A stretch of DNA of 64,000 bases, taken from positions 896,001 through 960,000 of the forward strand of contig CAVRAG010000008.1 in the NCBI GenBank assembly GCA_963718895.1. Reading direction: 5' to 3'. A model generated the notes under the pieces. It had not been told where the DNA came from and did no database searches. It was given only the letters and a program-made list of their open reading frames with translations. The stretch is from an uncultured Nitrososphaerota archaeon (GTDB taxonomy: Archaea; Thermoproteota; Nitrososphaeria; Nitrososphaerales; Gagatemarchaeaceae). Shown here piece by piece: positions 2,949 through 59,960 of the stretch; position 1 is the stretch's first letter; each line of letters begins with the position of its first letter. Position numbers and translations under genes: made by a program.

Positions 2949-3743
2949 TCAACTCTTCGGGTGTTGCGTGCCTTCGTCGTGTTTCCCTAGATATTCATAC
3001 TCGCCAGGACTCACGAACTTGACGAGCCCTAGGTCGCGGAGCACCTGGAGTTGCTGCCTTATCTTGGGACGTACGTTGTGATTGTCGCGATGCTTTCCTG
3101 CCAGTTCCTCCTCGAACTCGTAGAGCTCATCGAGCTTGAATGTGGTTGGCAATCTCTCGACGCACGTTAGTATGTCCGCGACCCAACCCCTGAGATTGGG
3201 TTTGGTCCTGAGGAGGGAATTACTCTGTTTCCATTGTGCTAGGACTTCCTTCTTTTCTCTAATTACTCCTTGATTGACGACTTCAATCTTGCCGAGCTTC
3301 GGGATATCGTCAAGCGAATAGAGACACCCTTGCCAACCGGCACGTCGTGCCGTCGGCGACAATGGCCTCCTGGGAATTATGCAGCTAGTCGTTATGCACG
3401 ATCTATGAATTATCGTGAGCGCTTCTGCCGACCAGTTTGGTTGATCGTAGTGCAAGAGAAACATGGAAGGCTGTGTTCCTGAGAGGATACTGTTTAGTGT
3501 CGTATGATACTCTGACCCAAGGAGAACGTGAGAGAATCTGTGGGCGCTAGACTTGAGTTGGAATCTCTCTGAGCAGGTCGGAGAATAGAAGTCGTAAACA
3601 CTCGTCCCTTGTGGGAAGGATGCGAGCTCAACTCCACATGACGGGCAATAGAAATTCTGAAGAGCCCACGCTTCCGTTGAGACTCTAGCTATCTGAGAGG
3701 CACTCTTAAGTCGGCCATCCGGAGGAGGTAATGCCAGCTCCAT
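2949..3743 (-). CDS. dpnI: DpnI / Dam-replacing family methylation-dependent restriction endonuclease
   Basis: SASQIARVSTEAW...YCPSCG, FQLKS, RRAGWQGC and C-terminal winged helix NHNVRPKIRQQLQVLRDLG. Confidence 0.9.
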   Translation of the reverse strand: MELALPPPDGRLKSASQIARVSTEAWALQNFYCPSCGVELASFPQGTSVYDFYSPTCSERFQLKSSAHRFSHVLLGSEYHTTLNSILSGTQPSMFLLHYDQPNWSAEALTIIHRSCITTSCIIPRRPLSPTARRAGWQGCLYSLDDIPKLGKIEVVNQGVIREKKEVLAQWKQSNSLLRTKPNLRGWVADILTCVERLPTTFKLDELYEFEEELAGKHRDNHNVRPKIRQQLQVLRDLGLVKFVSPGEYEYLGKHDEGTQHPKS

Positions 3744-4767: not shown

Positions 4768-5265
4768 ATGCAATTCGGTGGAGCGAGGACTCCTCTAGCG
4801 AAGCTGGGTATCAACAGGAAGTATGTCTCCTTGCCCGTTGGCAAATCACCGCAGTCTTCCTCCTCGGCCGTTTCGAAGTCGATGCGATCCAACAAGGCGT
4901 CAGGCACAAAGCCCGAACTCACACTTTCAAGACTTCTTAGGAAGAAAATCAGGCGAAATTCCCTTCCCGGCCGACCTGACTTCGCCTATTCGCGGGAAAA
5001 GGTGGCCGTTTTCGTTAACGGTTGTTTTTGGCACAGGTGCCCTGCTTGCAATCTTCCCATCCCTAGAAGGAACTCGTCCTTCTGGAAGCGCAAGTTCTCC
5101 AGAAACGTTGAGCGAGATGAACTAAATCGCAAAGAACTCGAGGCGAAAGGATGGACGGTCGTTGAACTTTGGGAGCACGAGATTAAGACTAGCCCAAAGG
5201 ATTCGTCGCTCAAGGTACTTAACGCGCTGAATCGGTCTTTGCGGGGCGACCGACTAAATCGGTGA
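4768..5265 (+). CDS. vsr: Very short patch repair endonuclease
   Basis: MRSNKASGTKPE, LPGRPDF, VFVNGCFWH, FWKRKF.RNVERD, WEHE. Confidence 0.92.
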   Translation: MQFGGARTPLAKLGINRKYVSLPVGKSPQSSSSAVSKSMRSNKASGTKPELTLSRLLRKKIRRNSLPGRPDFAYSREKVAVFVNGCFWHRCPACNLPIPRRNSSFWKRKFSRNVERDELNRKELEAKGWTVVELWEHEIKTSPKDSSLKVLNALNRSLRGDRLNR

Positions 5266-54205: not shown

Positions 54206-54538
54206 ATGGTCCAGGTCAGGGTTCACAGGATAAGCAGCGTAACCGAGCCGCTCACCGGCCTGCCCGCCAAGCAGATAGAACTCGTCGAGGTGAAGCAGAG
54301 GGGGAGCCAGACCTACGGGATGGGCGACGAGGGGAGGATGGTCCAGAGCATGGTCAACCAGCTGCAGTCGATGGGTCTGGTCCCCCAGGTCCGTGAGATG
54401 GTCTTCCCCAAGGTGACGATGGTCCTGACCGAGAGCGAGTACGACATGTTCGGGCTGCGCCTCGACGTCAACGACGTCTTCGAGCTCGAGATAAAGAACG
54501 GCAGTCTTGCTCTCAAGAAGTCTACCGAAGGGACATAG
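54206..54538 (+). CDS. Arcadin-1-like protein
   Basis: RV.RI.....G...KQIELVE...PK.T.VLTE.EY..FG...DVN.V.E pattern recalled from arcadin-1. Confidence 0.65.
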   Translation: MVQVRVHRISSVTEPLTGLPAKQIELVEVKQRGSQTYGMGDEGRMVQSMVNQLQSMGLVPQVREMVFPKVTMVLTESEYDMFGLRLDVNDVFELEIKNGSLALKKSTEGT

Positions 54539-54598
54539 GCACCCAACGGAAGATTTGGAAGAAGGCAGTTATATCTCCGTCTTCCACCAAGCAGTGGA

Positions 54599-55072
54599 TT
54601 GTCGAAGATAGCAGTCGGTGACAGAGCACCCGATTTTTCTCTCCATTCCCAGAGCGGAGAGGTCGTCCGCCTTAGTGACTACATCGGAAAGAAGAACGTC
54701 GTCCTCTATTTCTATCCGAAGGACTTCACCGCGGGCTGCACGGCCGAGGCTCGGGGGTTCAGGGACAGCTACCAGGAGTTCCGGGACAGCGAGACCGAGG
54801 TTATAGGGGTCAGCTCCGACAGCGTCGAGACCCATCAGCGGTTCTCCCAGCAGTGCAGCCTCCCGTTCAAGCTTCTCAGCGACTCCGGCAAGGAGCTGCG
54901 GGAGCTCTACGGGGTCTCGTCGACCCTGGGCATGTCGGGGCGCGTGACGTTCGTGATCGACAGGGAGGGCATCGTACGACACGTGTTCTCGTCCCAGCTT
55001 CGACCTACGAAACACATCAACGAAGCCCTGGACGCCCTGAAGGCCGTGAAGAAGACTCTGAGTGCTACCTGA
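54599..55072 (+). CDS. bcp: Peroxiredoxin BCP/PrxQ
   Basis: YFYPKDFTAGCTAEA, RVTFVID. Confidence 0.92.
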   Translation: MSKIAVGDRAPDFSLHSQSGEVVRLSDYIGKKNVVLYFYPKDFTAGCTAEARGFRDSYQEFRDSETEVIGVSSDSVETHQRFSQQCSLPFKLLSDSGKELRELYGVSSTLGMSGRVTFVIDREGIVRHVFSSQLRPTKHINEALDALKAVKKTLSAT

Positions 55073-55523
55073 TTACTAGCACGCTGCATGGAGCGTGCGA
55101 GACGAGCGCCCCCGAGACGCTGCCCAAGAGCAGTTTCTTGAACCCGCTCAGGCCCCGGGTCCCTACCACGATGAGGTCGACCCTCCACTCCTGGGCGTAC
55201 TCGGATATCGCCTCGACGACGGATGGGACGTTCTCTGTAATCTCGCCCCGTACCTTGACATCCTGGGCCTCAGCCTTGGAGACGATGCCCCCCACGAACG
55301 CCTCGGCTTCCTTCTTGGCCCTGTCGAAGAACTCCTCCGAGACCGGGCCGGAACCCACCGCGCCCTGGGCTCCCGTCGCCGCGTAGATGGGTGTGGGAAT
55401 CACGCTGAGGACGTAGAGGAGCGCGCCGCTCCTCTTCGCGAGGTCTATCGCCTCATCCGCAGCCCTCGAGGAGTTCGCTGAACCGTCGACCGCGACCAGG
55501 ATACCCTTGAACGAGCTCAACAC
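55065..55523 (-). CDS. Universal stress protein
   Basis: ILVAVDGS, VGTRG, LLGSVS, PCSVLV. Confidence 0.93.
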   Translation of the reverse strand: MLSSFKGILVAVDGSANSSRAADEAIDLAKRSGALLYVLSVIPTPIYAATGAQGAVGSGPVSEEFFDRAKKEAEAFVGGIVSKAEAQDVKVRGEITENVPSVVEAISEYAQEWRVDLIVVGTRGLSGFKKLLLGSVSGALVSHAPCSVLVIR

Positions 55524-55704
55524 GGTCCTAGGCTCGATTCCAACTTATGAAGATAATGGTCGGGTGCGGTCGGAGGTCATGGTAGCTTGGCTCGTGACTT
55601 TCCTAGAACGTAAGTGTCGAAGGTCCGTCGACAAGAGCAAAGCCCGAATTACGGCCTAAATCGACCTAAAAGGTAGGAATCCAACCCGCTTTTGGCAAAA
55701 GGAG

Positions 55705-55806
55705 TGGTGCGGCGTGCGGGATTCGAACCCGCGCAATAGGCTGTCTTCCCCTCATCTTCCGACGAGGGATGGGAAGCCCATATCCTAACCACTGGATCAA
55801 CGCCGC
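55705..55806 (-). tRNA. tRNA-Gly(CCC) with 27-nt intron at 37/38 (55743..55769), encoded CCA
   Basis: GCGGCGT/ACGCCGC acceptor stem, D arm, TGGGC-TTCCCA, GGTTCGAATCC T arm. Confidence 0.92.
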
Positions 55807-55905
55807 GCTGCCCGAGCAACCCTGAGTGCCAGTTATAAATCAGGTTTCGCTCGGTCAGAAATTGCGTGTCATTGGCCCATAAATCCTGAATGACCGTGTT
55901 AGCCC

Positions 55906-56310
55906 ATGGACTTGAACGAAGTTGGTACCGTGTTGTATTGGTGTGAAGGCAGCAAGAGAGAAGAGGACTACCGAGTGGAGTTCGTGAACTCAGATCCGAA
56001 GATGGTCGCTGTATTCATGAAGTACATTCGGGCCAAGCACATAGATGAGGCACGACTGAGGATCAGGATGGCAATTCATATCCAGGACGATGAGAGCGAG
56101 TGCAGAAAGTACTGGATGGGAGTCACAGGATTGAGGGACTCCAATTTCATGTGTACGATCGTGAAAGAACAAAGTCTGTGGAAGAAGCCGTTGCCTCACG
56201 GAACAGTGACAATCCGGTACAACTCCATTGCACTGCTTCAGGAGATAAAGCGCGAAATCTTGGTCTTGGCTGAAAAACTCTCGCAGAACTGTACACTGGC
56301 GACAGGCTGA
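55906..56310 (+). CDS. Free-standing LAGLIDADG-like protein
   Basis: GTVLYWCEGSK helix, FVNSDP, YW, HGT; lower GC than flanks. Confidence 0.65.
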   Translation: MDLNEVGTVLYWCEGSKREEDYRVEFVNSDPKMVAVFMKYIRAKHIDEARLRIRMAIHIQDDESECRKYWMGVTGLRDSNFMCTIVKEQSLWKKPLPHGTVTIRYNSIALLQEIKREILVLAEKLSQNCTLATG

Positions 56311-56372
56311 CTCCCTCCTATCTTCCGACAGGAGATGGGAAGCCTATATCCTAACCACTGGATCACAGCCGC
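56299..56372 (-). pseudogene. Truncated second tRNA-Gly(CCC): 5' exon + BHB intron + anticodon arm, no T arm or 3' acceptor
   Basis: GCGGCTGTGATCCAGTGGTTAGGATATAGGCTTCCCA-intron-AGCCTGTCGC; own TTATAAAT box. Confidence 0.85.
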
Positions 56373-56455
56373 GCTGCACCGGCAGGCCCGGAGGCCCATT
56401 ATAAATCGCATCTCAGCCTGGTTAAATACGTAATGAGGGGTATCCATGCGAAGCC

Positions 56456-56802
56456 TTGGCGGGCGAACTACTGCTCGGGATTACAATCCTCAGTCCGGGG
56501 GGAACAACGACCGTCCCCAGACGGGTCAGGGAGGTGTTGAAGCTGGAACCCACGCCCCACAAGAGGGGAAGATCCTGTGGACCCAGGAGGGCGATGATGT
56601 CATCGTCACGAAAGGGACGCCGCAGTCGAGCTTCAGGAAGACGATGCTCAGGAGAGGCGGAAGGGCGGCGGTCCCCAAGCACATAATGGAGGCGCTGGGG
56701 CTGAGATCCACGCCGCACAAGGAGGAGAGAATAGTGTGGATACAGAGGGGGGACGAAATCGTCGTCAGGAAAGGCGCACCGCTCTCGAGTCCCACCGACT
56801 AG
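56456..56802 (+). CDS. Tandem AbrB-domain protein (frameshift)
   Basis: GGTTTVP..VRE.L.L / GGRAAVPKHIMEALGL with repeated W.Q.GD.V.V.KG. Confidence 0.65.
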
Positions 56803-56836
56803 GAGTCTGCGTGAAAGGATGGGGATTCGACCCGTC

Positions 56837-58789
56837 CTAACCTGGCCTCAGATTCTTCGCCAGGCCCGTCCTCTCCAGCATCGAGAGATAGCGGGGGTCT
56901 GACCTCACGCCGTCCAGCTCGGATTCCACCGCCATCGCGTAGATCCTGCGGTCCAAGGATGTGAAGGCCCTCTCCAGCCACTCGAAGCCTGCGTCGTTGT
57001 CCTTCAGGATGAAATAGAGCGATGCGATCAAGAACGGACTCGCGGTCTTCACATCGGGCGAGCGTTCCACCTCGGAGAGCAGTCTGCGGCTCTCCTCAGC
57101 CCTCCCCATGGCCGCGTAGATCCAGGCATATACGAGCTTCGCGTCGGTCGGGTCGGTGAGCCTGCTGTAGATGTCGGCCATCGCCAGCGCCTCGCCGAAC
57201 ATCGACTTCGCAAGGTACGTCTGGATGAGGCTCGGGTAGACGCTGGAGAACCCGGGATCCATCTCGATGACCTTCTTCCCCTGTGCGATGGACTTGTCGA
57301 GCTCCCCGTTGTAGTAAAGGCCATCCATCAGGTTGGTGTTTATGATGAGCGACAGCGGGCTCAGCTCGACGGCCTTCCTTATCTCTGCCAGCGCCTCGGT
57401 ACGCCTCAGCTCGAACGCGAGCAGGTGGGAGTACCACTGGTGCGCGGTGGCATAGCTCGGATTGAGTTCGATGGCCTTCCGGAATGCTGCTTCGCTCCTC
57501 GCCGGGTCCCGCTCGTAGGTCAAGGATGCGGCCGCGATGACCGTGTGAGCCTCAGCCAGGCCGTCGTCCAGCGAGAGCGCATTCCGGGCGTTCTCGATAG
57601 CCCTGGGATAGTAGACCGACGGTTCATCGTAGTAATTGGCCGCCATGACCTGATAGCACTGGGCCATCCCCGCATAGCCTAGGGCGAAGGCAGGGTCGAG
57701 GTCGACGGCCATGGTGAAGAGCTCGGCAGCCTTCCTGAGCGCCTCCGGGGTCCTCCTGTTCCACTGAAACATCCCTTTCAGGTAGAGCGTGTGCGCCTCC
57801 GGGTTCCTGGTGGCGCCCTTCTCGATTCTCTTGAGCCCCTCATCGCTCAACCTGACCTTCAGGGCCTCCGCCACCTTCTGCGCGACCTCGCTCTGGATGG
57901 CGAAGACGTCGTCGAGCTGCTTGTCGTAGTTCTGGGCCCACAGGTGCCCCTCGTTGCGGGCGTCGATGAGCTGGACGGTTATCCTGACCTTGTTCCCGGC
58001 CTTCCTCACGCTCCCCTCTATCAGGGTCCCGGTGCTCAGTTCCCTGCCGATCTCGCCTATCCTCTTCGTGGAGTTCTTGTACTGCATGGTCGAGGTCCTT
58101 GCGATGACCGTGAGGTCGGTGACGGTGGCTAGCGATGTTATCAGCTCCTCGGTCATGCCCTCGGCGAAGTACTCGTCGTTCGGGTCTGGGCTCATGTTCT
58201 TCAGAGGAAGGACCGCGACCCTCCGCACATCCAGCTCCCCAACCTCCGGCGTGCTCTCCATCTCCCAGGGCATGACTATCCTGTAGACTTCGATGGGGAT
58301 GCTGACGTTCTTTAGAGTCTTGCCCTCCAGCTTCTCCAAGGGCAGGCCTATCTTGTTCCTGACCTGGTCATAGACCTGTGCCGAGATACAGACGCCTCCC
58401 GGCGCCGCGAGCGGCTCGATGCGGGAGGAGACGTTGACGGCATCGCCGAGGATGTCTCCCTGGGAGTGGACCACGTCGCCCACGTGGACGCCGACCCGGA
58501 TCTGGATGCGCCTCTCGGGCGGCAGAACCGCGTTCCTTTCGTGCATCGCCTGCTGGATCTCGGCGGAGCATGCGACCGCCTCCAGCGCGCTCGGGAACTC
58601 GACGAGGAAGGCGTCGCCGATCGTCTTCACCTCCTTCCCGTTGTGCCTGGGGAAGATCGTGCGGAGGAGTACCCGGTGCTCCTCAAGCACGAGGAGCGTT
58701 CGGGCCTCGTCAGCCTGGGAAAGGGCGGTGAAACCCACTATGTCGGTGAACATGATAGCGGCGAGCCTCCGCTCGGATTTGACTGCCAT
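56837..58789 (-). CDS. Class III adenylate/guanylate cyclase + TolB-N-like + TPR
   Basis: FTDIVGFT, KTIGDA, GDAVNVSSRIE, AVLPL.N...YFAEG, TPRs. Confidence 0.92.
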   Translation of the reverse strand: MAVKSERRLAAIMFTDIVGFTALSQADEARTLLVLEEHRVLLRTIFPRHNGKEVKTIGDAFLVEFPSALEAVACSAEIQQAMHERNAVLPPERRIQIRVGVHVGDVVHSQGDILGDAVNVSSRIEPLAAPGGVCISAQVYDQVRNKIGLPLEKLEGKTLKNVSIPIEVYRIVMPWEMESTPEVGELDVRRVAVLPLKNMSPDPNDEYFAEGMTEELITSLATVTDLTVIARTSTMQYKNSTKRIGEIGRELSTGTLIEGSVRKAGNKVRITVQLIDARNEGHLWAQNYDKQLDDVFAIQSEVAQKVAEALKVRLSDEGLKRIEKGATRNPEAHTLYLKGMFQWNRRTPEALRKAAELFTMAVDLDPAFALGYAGMAQCYQVMAANYYDEPSVYYPRAIENARNALSLDDGLAEAHTVIAAASLTYERDPARSEAAFRKAIELNPSYATAHQWYSHLLAFELRRTEALAEIRKAVELSPLSLIINTNLMDGLYYNGELDKSIAQGKKVIEMDPGFSSVYPSLIQTYLAKSMFGEALAMADIYSRLTDPTDAKLVYAWIYAAMGRAEESRRLLSEVERSPDVKTASPFLIASLYFILKDNDAGFEWLERAFTSLDRRIYAMAVESELDGVRSDPRYLSMLERTGLAKNLRPG

Positions 58790-59084
58790 CGGGCTGTGTG
58801 TTTGTACCAGCCCTCGAGTTAAAACTATTTGCTGGTCCAGCGCCCGACGCTTATCGGTCAAGCCTGCCCGGTATGATGGAGGCTACGTTCTCGACATGAA
58901 CATGGCGACCTTGTTCACCTTGAAAAGCCGGTCGTCTGCTGCCGAAACAGCAAGCGTCCTCCTTGCCTGCCTATCCGGACACCCTAGCTGCGGAGGGCCT
59001 CTGCCATCCTCACGACCCTGCAGGTCGAACCCGCCGCGCCAGGACGCTATGATCGTCTGGTGAATACTATAAATCAACCCACCC

Positions 59085-59960
59085 GTGCGCGCCACCGTGC
59101 AAAAGGACCTCCTAGACGGCGTCTCGGCGAGGATCAAGGAGCTCGGCAAGGGAGGCTACTCGAGGGTCTACAGGTCCAGCGGCCGCGAGTACCCTGATGC
59201 TCTGCACGTCCTTGTGAGCAGAATCCTGGACGCGGCGGGCGTCGAGTACCGGACCGGCGAGCCAATCTTCCCCGGCTCTCCCAGGCTGGCCGACTTTGCC
59301 GTCGGGGACAGGCTGATCATCCTCGGCGGAGACCTCAGCGCTGACGAGAGGAAGAGGGCCGCCCGCGCCGGGAAGAAGTGCGTCGTGATCGCAAAGAGCG
59401 AGATGCGCAGCGACGTCTTCGACACCGGGACGAGGGTCCTCCGTTCGGGCGACCGCTCGAAGGAGAGGCTTCAGACGATCTTCCTCGACGACCCGTCGTT
59501 CAACTTCGACTATGCACACATCCTCCCCAAGACCGAGAAGTGCTCCGTGATGCACGGGCACACGTCCTCGGTTCTCGTCGAGCTCGTGGGCTCGCCGAGG
59601 GACGGAATGGTCGTCGACTTCAACGACGCCAAGCCGATAATCAGGGAGGCGGTGCGAGGACTCGACCACAAGCTCTTCATCAGCAACAGGTACGTCACGG
59701 GGAGGGAAGGGAGGAGCGTGCTCATAGGGTTCGACACGGTCCACGGGAGGTTCGAGATGAGGGTCCCCGCCAAGACCACCGTCCTCCTCGAGGAGGAGGC
59801 GACCGTCGAGAACCTGGCGCAGGAGCTGGTCCGTAGGATAGCCCCAGGGATGCCCGAGAACGTGGAGGCCGTAGGAGTCTACGTCTACGAGGGCCTCAAC
59901 AAGGGCACCCACCTCCTTGCGCTCATCCATTCGAGAGAGGCCGAGCGGCGACGGAAGTAA
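59085..59960 (+). CDS. queD: QueD/PTPS with extra N-terminal domain
   Basis: CSVMHGH, GMVVDF, LDHK, TVENLA, VYEG. Confidence 0.85.
   Translation: MRATVQKDLLDGVSARIKELGKGGYSRVYRSSGREYPDALHVLVSRILDAAGVEYRTGEPIFPGSPRLADFAVGDRLIILGGDLSADERKRAARAGKKCVVIAKSEMRSDVFDTGTRVLRSGDRSKERLQTIFLDDPSFNFDYAHILPKTEKCSVMHGHTSSVLVELVGSPRDGMVVDFNDAKPIIREAVRGLDHKLFISNRYVTGREGRSVLIGFDTVHGRFEMRVPAKTTVLLEEEATVENLAQELVRRIAPGMPENVEAVGVYVYEGLNKGTHLLALIHSREAERRRK

Follow-up and report, generated by a model that had tools for sequence, protein, structure and literature searches.

How does a complete transfer RNA (tRNA) gene come to stand next to a broken second allele of itself, with a small protein-coding gene lodged between the two? 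The question is raised by a soil archaeon of the Nitrososphaerales known from assembly GCA_963718895.1, of which we analyzed a stretch of 64,000 nucleotides (nt) of contig CAVRAG010000008.1 (positions 896,001 to 960,000), hereafter called the window. Between positions 55705 and 56372 the window carries a complete tRNA-Gly(CCC) gene, then an open reading frame (ORF), then a broken second tRNA-Gly(CCC) allele. A first-pass annotation of this DNA had proposed an element that invades a tRNA gene and brings along its own replacement. We consider it fairly probable that the segment 55705-56310 is a homing cassette of about 0.6 kb, composed of a tRNA gene and a nuclease gene and devoid of an integrase, which replaced the resident tRNA-Gly(CCC). 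The observations behind this proposal are the anatomy of the locus, the fold and motif of the encoded protein, its family-wide linkage to tRNA genes, its patchy and decaying distribution, junctions that fall in the T arm, and a rule by which intact and leftover tRNA pieces belong to different alleles.

In the proposed mechanism, the cassette would consist of a complete tRNA-Gly(CCC) gene, a promoter spacer of about 100 bp shared by both genes and a divergently oriented gene for a single-domain LAGLIDADG-type nuclease. Acting as a homodimer, the nuclease would cut a resident tRNA-Gly(CCC) gene in or near its T loop, the centre of which, a 6-bp palindrome flanked by the inverted strands of the T stem, would suit a homodimeric enzyme. 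Repair from a cassette-bearing donor would then set the cassette at the break, and the essential tRNA would be supplied by the cassette copy. Homology-facilitated recombination, listed in the first-pass annotation as an alternative, may be the repair route and forms part of this model. Departing from the resident allele in its T stem and acceptor-stem base, the cassette tRNA would presumably escape cutting; to judge from the sequences, self-immunity probably rests on these allele differences. In the window, the 3' end of the ORF would have come to abut the 5' part of the resident gene, which would survive with its promoter as a dead remnant.

The anatomy of the locus is compiled in Table 1. 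The complete tRNA gene is recognized by Rfam model RF00005 (55.8 bits, 55708-55806, minus strand). ARAGORN at default settings reported no tRNA in the window; with introns allowed, it read the anticodon CCC and a 27-nt intron after position 37. The remnant aligns with the complete copy over the TATA box, acceptor, D arm, anticodon arm, 27-nt intron and variable loop up to a break at T-stem position 49, so that it spans tRNA positions 1-49 and keeps its own promoter. The motif TTTATAA lies exactly 26 nt ahead of base 1 in both copies. Their acceptor 5' strands differ (GCGGCGT in the complete copy, GCGGCTG in the remnant), and their intron stems differ by paired changes. When the anticodon arm and intron were folded alone, the remnant formed a canonical bulge-helix-bulge (BHB) of a 3-nt bulge, a 4-bp helix and a 3-nt bulge, and the complete copy formed a relaxed BHB, a contrast that had already been pointed out. 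The ORF lies outside the tRNA on the opposite strand and not inside a BHB or group I intron. Its guanine-plus-cytosine fraction (0.48-0.50) is low compared with that of the neighbouring genes (0.60-0.67), and its stop codon falls 13 nt inside the remnant, which encodes the last five or so codons together with the stop. Since relatives of the ORF end about six codons earlier, the C-terminal tail of the window protein is probably derived from the junction. The position of the TATA-like box ahead of the ORF suggests a leaderless mRNA, and a comparable TAAAT or TAAGT box is found at the same distance in L050, L051, L066 and L090. No integrase or recombinase was found among the ORFs of 54500-57500, in keeping with the integrase-free unit of about 600 bp described initially.

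Table 1. Features of the tRNA-Gly(CCC) locus, with positions counted from the first letter of the window
Feature	Position	Strand	Basis
Complete tRNA-Gly(CCC), allele A, acceptor GCGGCGT/ACGCCGC, CCA encoded	55705..55806	-	Rfam, ARAGORN with introns, sequence, fold
Exon 1 of complete tRNA	55770-55806	-	
27-nt intron of complete tRNA	55743-55769	-	
Exon 2 of complete tRNA	55708-55742	-	
TATA box of complete tRNA	55833..55839	-	26 nt before base 1, read from sequence
TATA-like box, 21-28 nt ahead of ORF ATG (putative)	55878..55885	+	sequence
Intact 134-amino-acid single-domain LAGLIDADG-like ORF, putative homing endonuclease	55906..56310	+	ORF listing, homologues, profile, fold, dimer model
Remnant of resident tRNA-Gly(CCC), allele B'', acceptor 5' strand GCGGCTG	56298..56372	-	alignment, sequence, fold
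TATA box of remnant	56399..56405	-	26 nt before remnant base 1
Possible scar, uncertain: degenerate tRNA 3' end with T-loop, T-stem and acceptor-like parts	59023..59043	+	about 25 nt before TATA box of QueD-like gene; by-eye reading
QueD-like gene (Pfam PTPS)	59097..59921	+	tblastn match C8:955103-955921; PF01242 on L003 orthologue; synteny

An arrangement of two near-copies invites the suspicion that two strain variants of one tRNA locus were joined in assembly, all the more as the source genome is a 3.13-Mb metagenome-type assembly estimated to be 80.5% complete with 5.41% contamination. The junction between ORF and remnant is, however, bridged with 0 differences by contigs from public runs of two studies, among which the source sample of the window may itself figure (X4 record 9, covering 56142-56406, and X1 record 3, covering 56287-56437), and the same architecture, a 5' tRNA remnant abutting the 3' end of the ORF, recurs in L002 and L075. 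Contig coverage of 55500-56600 was partial, the uncovered parts being uninformative; the public run search listed no RNA run, and the best DNA runs kept at most 0.30 of the sampled words. We attach next to no probability to an assembly artefact, and with the junction bridged by independent contigs, the first-pass description of the locus (complete and truncated copies with differing acceptors, paired changes in the intron stem, equal TATA spacing, a cut at the 3' end of a low-GC ORF) proves correct in every checkable detail. The same description left room for the truncated copy to be the functional 5' half of a split, trans-spliced tRNA, as its correctly spaced TATA box and its intact canonical BHB intron might suggest. 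Against this, the anticodon arm is present on both sides in the truncated copy, whose end at position 49 does not coincide with a BHB junction; a complete tRNA-Gly(CCC) lies 500 bp away; and a T arm with the matching CAGCCGC was not found elsewhere in the 80.5%-complete assembly, where the single match sits in an unrelated context. A split tRNA is in our view extremely improbable.

What kind of protein does the ORF encode? No curated LAGLIDADG model (Pfam LAGLIDADG_1, LAGLIDADG_2, LAGLIDADG_3 or Hom_end) matches it, and the number of Pfam families found at E up to 1 was 0. In searches of the PDB sequences with phmmer and a narrow profile, the sole matches were snake C-type lectins (E 0.03-0.4), judged to be chance hits, and a search of the ESM Atlas returned unnamed clusters only. 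The close homologues (n = 79, about 128 amino acids (aa); the named ones from Nitrososphaerales archaea) align with a mean column identity of 56% and many invariant residues. When 1.84 billion representatives were scanned, 1316 clusters were obtained with an E value of at most 1e-3, many of which comprise proteins of about 220 aa with an N-terminal helix-turn-helix (HTH) domain and some proteins of 400-576 aa with two copies of the domain; ten longer relatives compared with Pfam matched HTH domains only.

The AlphaFold (AF2) model of the ORF protein has a mean predicted local distance difference test score (pLDDT) of 88.6. VIA-align, a search independent of Foldseek, ranked LAGLIDADG domains highest, namely the TliVMA intein endonuclease domain (Z 6.3), I-DmoI (6.2), E-DreI (5.9), WhiA (5.9/5.8) and I-Tsp061I (5.7), with I-Vdi141I lower (4.8); such domains make up seven of the top 11 rows, with Z from 6.3 to 5.1, hence all below 8, over 80-85 aligned residues. 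In an alignment of 47 diverse family members, only three residues are invariant, two of which, E14 and G15, end the first helix. Among PDB sequences, the broad profile built from this alignment found I-DmoI only (E 0.007 to 0.019; seven of eight matches), and it aligns the invariant Glu-Gly pair with the second LAGLIDADG motif of I-DmoI (residues 113-120, E 0.007), the glutamate of which, aligned with E14, we take to be catalytic. A homodimer model scored 0.42 against 0.04 for the best control, with at least 56% of contacts shared between runs and pLDDT of at least 83; the pass mark applied is reached by 20 of 30 solved homo-pairs and by one of 23 single chains, and passing it may reflect the likeness of the model to solved LAGLIDADG dimers. 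The predicted interface is formed by helix residues 1-14, the two motif helices packing together so that residues 13 and 14 of both copies touch. From the fold search, the I-DmoI match and the dimer model taken together, we conclude that the ORF product is probably a divergent protein with a single domain of LAGLIDADG type, in which the catalytic-type acidic residue is retained, and a putative nuclease, as had been surmised from its sequence at first sight. Elsewhere in the same genome (C8:181487-181588; L131 1237-1641, minus strand), a 135-aa ORF with two LAGLIDADG-like motifs and a weak Pfam LAGLIDADG_3 match (E 3.5e-4) stops directly after its second motif; no tRNA was found within 1.5 kb of it.

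Is the proximity to a tRNA gene a peculiarity of the window or a property of the family? The archaeal clade is represented by 54 loci, of which 10 come from species genomes and 44 come from metagenomes. In 48 of them, a tRNA-Gly 5' exon on the opposite strand precedes the ORF by 94-224 nt, mostly by 95-110 nt. Of the six others, L002 and L079 have little or no upstream sequence, and L056, L063 and L068 show part of the tRNA or its 3' exon. The size of the unit is constant across loci. The survey of homologues called for at the outset thus finds the gene linked to tRNA almost without exception. The single clear exception is an intact homologue with 55% identity that has no tRNA within 3 kb (L007/L046, genome G036, contig C4); the tRNA-Gly(CCC) of that genome lies on another contig (C6), adjoining a QueD-like gene and without the ORF.

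The linkage extends to distant homologues of 25-48% identity, mostly from bacterial metagenome-assembled genomes (MAGs), for which a tRNA is found within 400 bp in 38 of 42 loci (L094-L129 and L011-L016). Here the tRNA is usually tRNA-Ser(GCU) or tRNA-Trp(CCA), also tRNA-Gln or tRNA-Pro, located 12-90 nt downstream on the same strand, and the protein often carries an N-terminal HTH domain. At roughly one tRNA per 50 kb, we estimate chance adjacency at a few percent. No partial tRNA duplicate was found beside the ORF in these 42 bacterial-type loci. In L011, a group I intron (Rfam RF00028, 68.2 bits, 3403-3645) begins 28 nt past the ORF homologue, apparently within a tRNA-like gene (ARAGORN 3378-3702).

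The leftover tRNA pieces found beside the ORF are of three kinds, and all of them end in the T arm or T loop. Pieces of the first kind (a) are promoter-bearing 5' parts that abut the 3' end of the ORF, reaching to position 49 in the window, 53 in L075 and 58, within the T-loop TTCGA, in L002. The second kind (b), present at 26 loci, is an orphan 3' part oriented like the ORF that extends from T loop to acceptor, often with CCA; these fragments abut or overlap the ORF stop, and the stop codon often lies inside the fragment. The third kind (c) is represented by L053, in which an orphan allele-B 3' part follows 15 nt behind a complete allele-A tRNA in the same orientation. Kinds (a) and (c) fit the insertion of a block made of ORF, spacer and complete tRNA into a T-loop break in one orientation, and kind (b) fits insertion in the opposite orientation. 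The opposite orientation predicts that the flanks are swapped relative to the native gene order of the family, in which an arcadin-like gene, AhpC, sometimes Usp and tRNA-Gly are followed by a divergent QueD-like gene. Swapped flanks are indeed observed, in nine loci (L001, L050, L051/52, L066/67, L077, L079 and L090). In the eight of them with upstream sequence, the QueD-like gene adjoins the 3' end of the complete tRNA, and in those with an identified downstream flank (L001, L066/67 and L079), Usp, or else AhpC with the arcadin-like gene, comes after the orphan fragment. The possible scar listed for the window in Table 1 lies where class I loci have an orphan tRNA 3' fragment.

In view of such partial duplicates, one may ask whether the locus is an integrase-type element or virus, the tRNA piece being an attachment-site repeat and the ORF mere cargo or a relic. 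tRNA genes are classic integration sites, as stated in PMC3218864, and on contig C23 of genome G186 two extra tRNA-Gly 3'-end pieces, resembling attachment-site repeats, lie in direct orientation 2.5-3 kb downstream of the complete tRNA (L043 5367-5390 and 5815-5835). Yet neither the 0.6-kb unit nor its surroundings hold an integrase, the unit size does not vary from locus to locus, and the repeat is a promoter-bearing 5' part or an inverted 3' part of another allele rather than an identical 3' part in direct repeat. An integrase-type origin is very improbable.

The complete tRNAs are sorted by their acceptor stems: type A has GCGGCGT/ACGCCGC, and in the B types the 5' strand is GCGGCCG, GCGGCCT or GCGGCTG, each paired with its own 3' strand; the top pairs of the T stem also distinguish A from the B types. 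Wherever both could be typed, the orphan 3' fragment is of a different allele type than its intact neighbour (24 of 24 loci, with about 20 distinct sequences from at least seven clades; metagenome loci are not independent samples). Fragments beside allele-A cassettes match the usual allele of the host clade, as placed by the QueD-like gene, namely B' in clade H4 and B in clade H2. The window conforms to this pattern, its truncated copy being of the allele type of the host's relatives and its complete copy being allele A. The remnant's GCGGCTG pairs with the orphan 3' fragment CAGCCGC of L050, the sister locus, whose ORF is the closest to that of the window (77% nucleotide identity) and stands in the opposite orientation. 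Read by eye, the sequences show element-associated allele differences at positions 6-7, 49-50 and 64-67, which belong to the T stem and acceptor-stem base and not to the intron. The first-pass suggestion that the intron helix serves as the immunity site finds no support in these data, with all junctions in the T arm or T loop. The tRNA of genome G227 is a mosaic of the two window copies, and such mosaics imply that conversion tracts or recombination between copies must be common. The possibility that the locus is an invertible switch, with one 5' part flipping between two outward-facing 3' parts, was considered and rejected, since the 5' acceptor and T-stem strands always match only one 3' part.

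Allele A also has another gene beside it. In a family survey of 21 full-length tRNA-Gly(CCC) loci, a LAGLIDADG gene stands beside seven of the eight type-A tRNAs, versus the ORF at three of the 13 B-type tRNAs. In two of these seven type-A loci the gene belongs to the ORF family; in the other five it is a LAGLIDADG_3 gene, or its remnant, overlapping the tRNA 5' end. The LAGLIDADG_3 gene (Pfam, E 2.4e-12; L133 1594-2178, minus strand, in G227; also L153, L137 and L139) lies directly upstream of the allele-A tRNA in the same orientation, and its 3' end overlaps the first 10 nt of the tRNA; it was seen in four genomes of the family, with a 19-aa remnant in L134. In a comparison of the ORF family profile with the G227 protein by hhalign, two motifs align without significance (E 0.28). 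This tRNA therefore hosts two unrelated nuclease gene families.

The ORF is rare and often decayed. It was found in eight of 201 sampled genomes of the order, all belonging to one family (7/40), and in two of five other genomes of the window's genus. Three of the copies in sampled genomes are broken (G174, G183 and G122), and a crude frame test detected a premature stop or frame break within the match in 20 of 59 copies, of which about 14 are distinct. On contig C70 of G174 (L042 around 2300-2400), just past the 3' side of the broken ORF, a run of N is flanked by the same 55 or so nt on both sides, which looks like a scaffolding artefact. Relatives with an unoccupied site, sought in the wake of the first annotation, do exist. 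In G144, which is 78% identical in nucleotides to the window over the upstream flank, about 190 bp without an ORF separate the tRNA from the QueD-like gene, and in G118 the tRNA likewise stands next to the QueD-like gene without the ORF. In relatives, tRNA-Gly(CCC) natively adjoins this gene; the window remnant lies about 2.7 kb away from it, across other genes. At 56446-58861, where relatives have only a spacer of about 190 bp, the window carries a 118-aa ORF, which has an internal repeat and no family match, and a 674-aa adenylate-cyclase/TPR gene.

Some tRNA-Gly(CCC) genes contain a second intron of 21-31 nt in the T loop, at about position 59/60 (G144, at L040 ~5040-5065; L005; L050/L077). 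These introns sit where the scars begin, and those of G144 and L050 share sequence. They would split a target site in the T loop, which would fit the idea that tRNA introns are protective, as quoted in PMC3218864.

Is the ORF inherited with its host or does it move? The ORF tree shows well-separated lineages, with only three changes of the linked allele type. Host clade H4 is united with support 100 by the QueD-like gene, yet its ORFs fall into two distant lineages, whose monophyly is rejected by the ORF data (p-AU, from the approximately unbiased test, 0.0026; the groups tested were named after the trees had been seen). The window falls in clade H2, within which the ORF tree is congruent with that of the host. 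On the L002 contig, assigned to a Terriglobia bacterium MAG, the ORF stands with a tRNA-Gly remnant of archaeal type and a QueD-like gene that shares 78% identity with its archaeal counterpart; this contig is probably archaeal and was placed in a bacterial bin.

The agreement within H2 is what one would expect of a domesticated, WhiA-like DNA-binding protein derived from a LAGLIDADG enzyme, vertically inherited and regulating the divergent tRNA-Gly(CCC) or the QueD-like promoters, the tRNA pieces being by-products of unrelated rearrangements at a tRNA hot spot. Such a role would also account for the spacing of about 100 bp to the tRNA, fixed in most of the 48 loci, and for the strong conservation of the protein; WhiA figures among the fold matches, and many distant relatives bear the N-terminal HTH domain. 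A regulator sits poorly, however, with a gene that is confined to so few genomes of the order and broken in about a third of its copies, that keeps the catalytic-type Glu-Gly motif invariant and that conflicts with the host tree in H4. Nor does it explain the rule of different alleles, the T-arm junctions or the presence of a second, Pfam-recognized LAGLIDADG_3 gene at the same tRNA in other genomes. We regard a regulatory function as distinctly unlikely, and the homing cassette as the better account of these data.

A number of observations nevertheless weigh against the homing cassette, among them the non-independence of the metagenome loci noted above. As regards the protein, no model of Pfam, NCBIfam or PHROG matches it even at E up to 1 or 10, and Foldseek against the PDB returned no LAGLIDADG match, listing OmpA-like and YjgF-like folds at E above 1e-3; as every VIA-align Z is below 8, the fold search alone constitutes moderate evidence. 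As regards the tRNA, type-A copies agree in their D arm and anticodon stem with the host clade and not with the ORF lineage, which means that the cassette tRNA is often a mosaic rather than a wholesale import. In L075, exceptionally, the remnant and the complete copy share the acceptor 5' strand and differ in the T stem only. As regards the scars, many B-linked loci (class III) are scarless, with the ORF stop abutting the QueD-like promoter; in the window, the complete tRNA has a 3' trailer similar to that of a resident tRNA from the same genus, and no clear resident 3' scar lies behind it. The spacer of G118 holds a degenerate T-arm-like piece, so that this site may have been occupied formerly and have lost the ORF. 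Finally, two other candidate transfers are not significant (L002, p 0.067; L006, host test, p 0.21).

A bolder version of the homing cassette, possible though on the unlikely side, is a two-state reciprocal homing in which different LAGLIDADG lineages would each be tied to the tRNA-Gly(CCC) allele that they spare and would cut the T arm of the other allele. Each event would swap the essential tRNA, often flip the orientation between the AhpC side and the QueD side, and leave behind the 3' end or the 5' part of the loser. As either type would generate new targets for its counterpart, the usual succession of fixation and decay would not apply to the nucleases. If this were true, the T stem, the acceptor base and the T-loop introns would be evolving as escape variants, and the family (at least 1316 representative clusters in archaea and bacteria) would represent an unrecognized class of nucleases that target tRNA genes.

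The homing cassette itself, if borne out, would constitute a new way for a selfish gene to occupy an essential gene, needing neither splicing element nor integrase and bringing its own replacement tRNA. It would give a name to a large unannotated protein family found beside tRNA genes in archaea and bacteria, and such small single-domain LAGLIDADG enzymes with defined tRNA-gene targets could serve as compact site-specific nucleases. Homing endonucleases are known from introns, inteins and intergenic regions of phages, and tRNA genes are known as targets of integrases. A full-text literature search, the coverage of which left out most subscription journals and supplements, retrieved no LAGLIDADG gene linked to tRNA-Gly and no description of a tRNA-replacing homing cassette. 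Known in kind are the free-standing homing endonuclease and the tRNA gene target that is restored by a sequence borne on the element; new are the combination of these parts, the chromosomal archaeal setting, the T-loop junctions and the two-allele pattern. Randau and Söll, as cited in PMC3218864, have proposed that archaeal tRNA introns and odd tRNA gene structures protect against mobile elements, and a cassette of this kind would be a concrete and testable agent for their proposal.

How does this element compare with the systems already known? A close parallel is offered by free-standing homing endonuclease genes of phages (PMC13096335), notably that of T4 SegB in a tRNA gene cluster. Like the ORF, these nuclease genes lie between genes and not in an intron or intein, and they stand beside tRNA genes; SegB reportedly spreads through break repair with co-conversion of adjacent sequence, and sequence differences reportedly protect the copy in its own genome from being cut. 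The archaeal cassette differs in that its gene is LAGLIDADG-like, resides in archaeal chromosomes, carries a whole replacement tRNA gene and leaves behind resident halves broken in the T loop. SegB itself is reportedly a GIY-YIG enzyme encoded by the phage. The archaeal intron-encoded enzymes I-DmoI, I-Tsp061I and I-Vdi141I resemble the ORF product in its predicted fold (Z 6.2, 5.7 and 4.8) and have in common with it an archaeal host and a stable-RNA gene as target, predicted in the present case, and I-DmoI shares the Glu-Gly motif as well. These enzymes are two-domain monomers encoded inside spliced rRNA introns, unlike the ORF family with its single domain of 128 aa and predicted homodimer. 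As the ORF is encoded outside the tRNA on the opposite strand, function would be restored by a duplicate gene and not by splicing. WhiA, a transcription factor domesticated from a LAGLIDADG ancestor, possesses two degenerate LAGLIDADG domains without catalytic residues. It resembles the ORF product in its LAGLIDADG-like fold (Z 5.9/5.8) and, as many distant relatives of the ORF do, in its linkage to an HTH domain; it is universally conserved in its phyla, in contrast to the patchy and often broken ORF family with its invariant Glu-Gly motif. SSV-type and other integrase elements, lastly, also insert into a tRNA gene, restore it with a tRNA sequence borne on the element and leave a partial duplicate. 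They are kilobases long, encode a tyrosine recombinase and are bounded by an identical tRNA 3' part in direct repeats, whereas the cassette, at 0.6 kb and without a recombinase, carries a full tRNA with its own promoter and leaves a piece of another allele.

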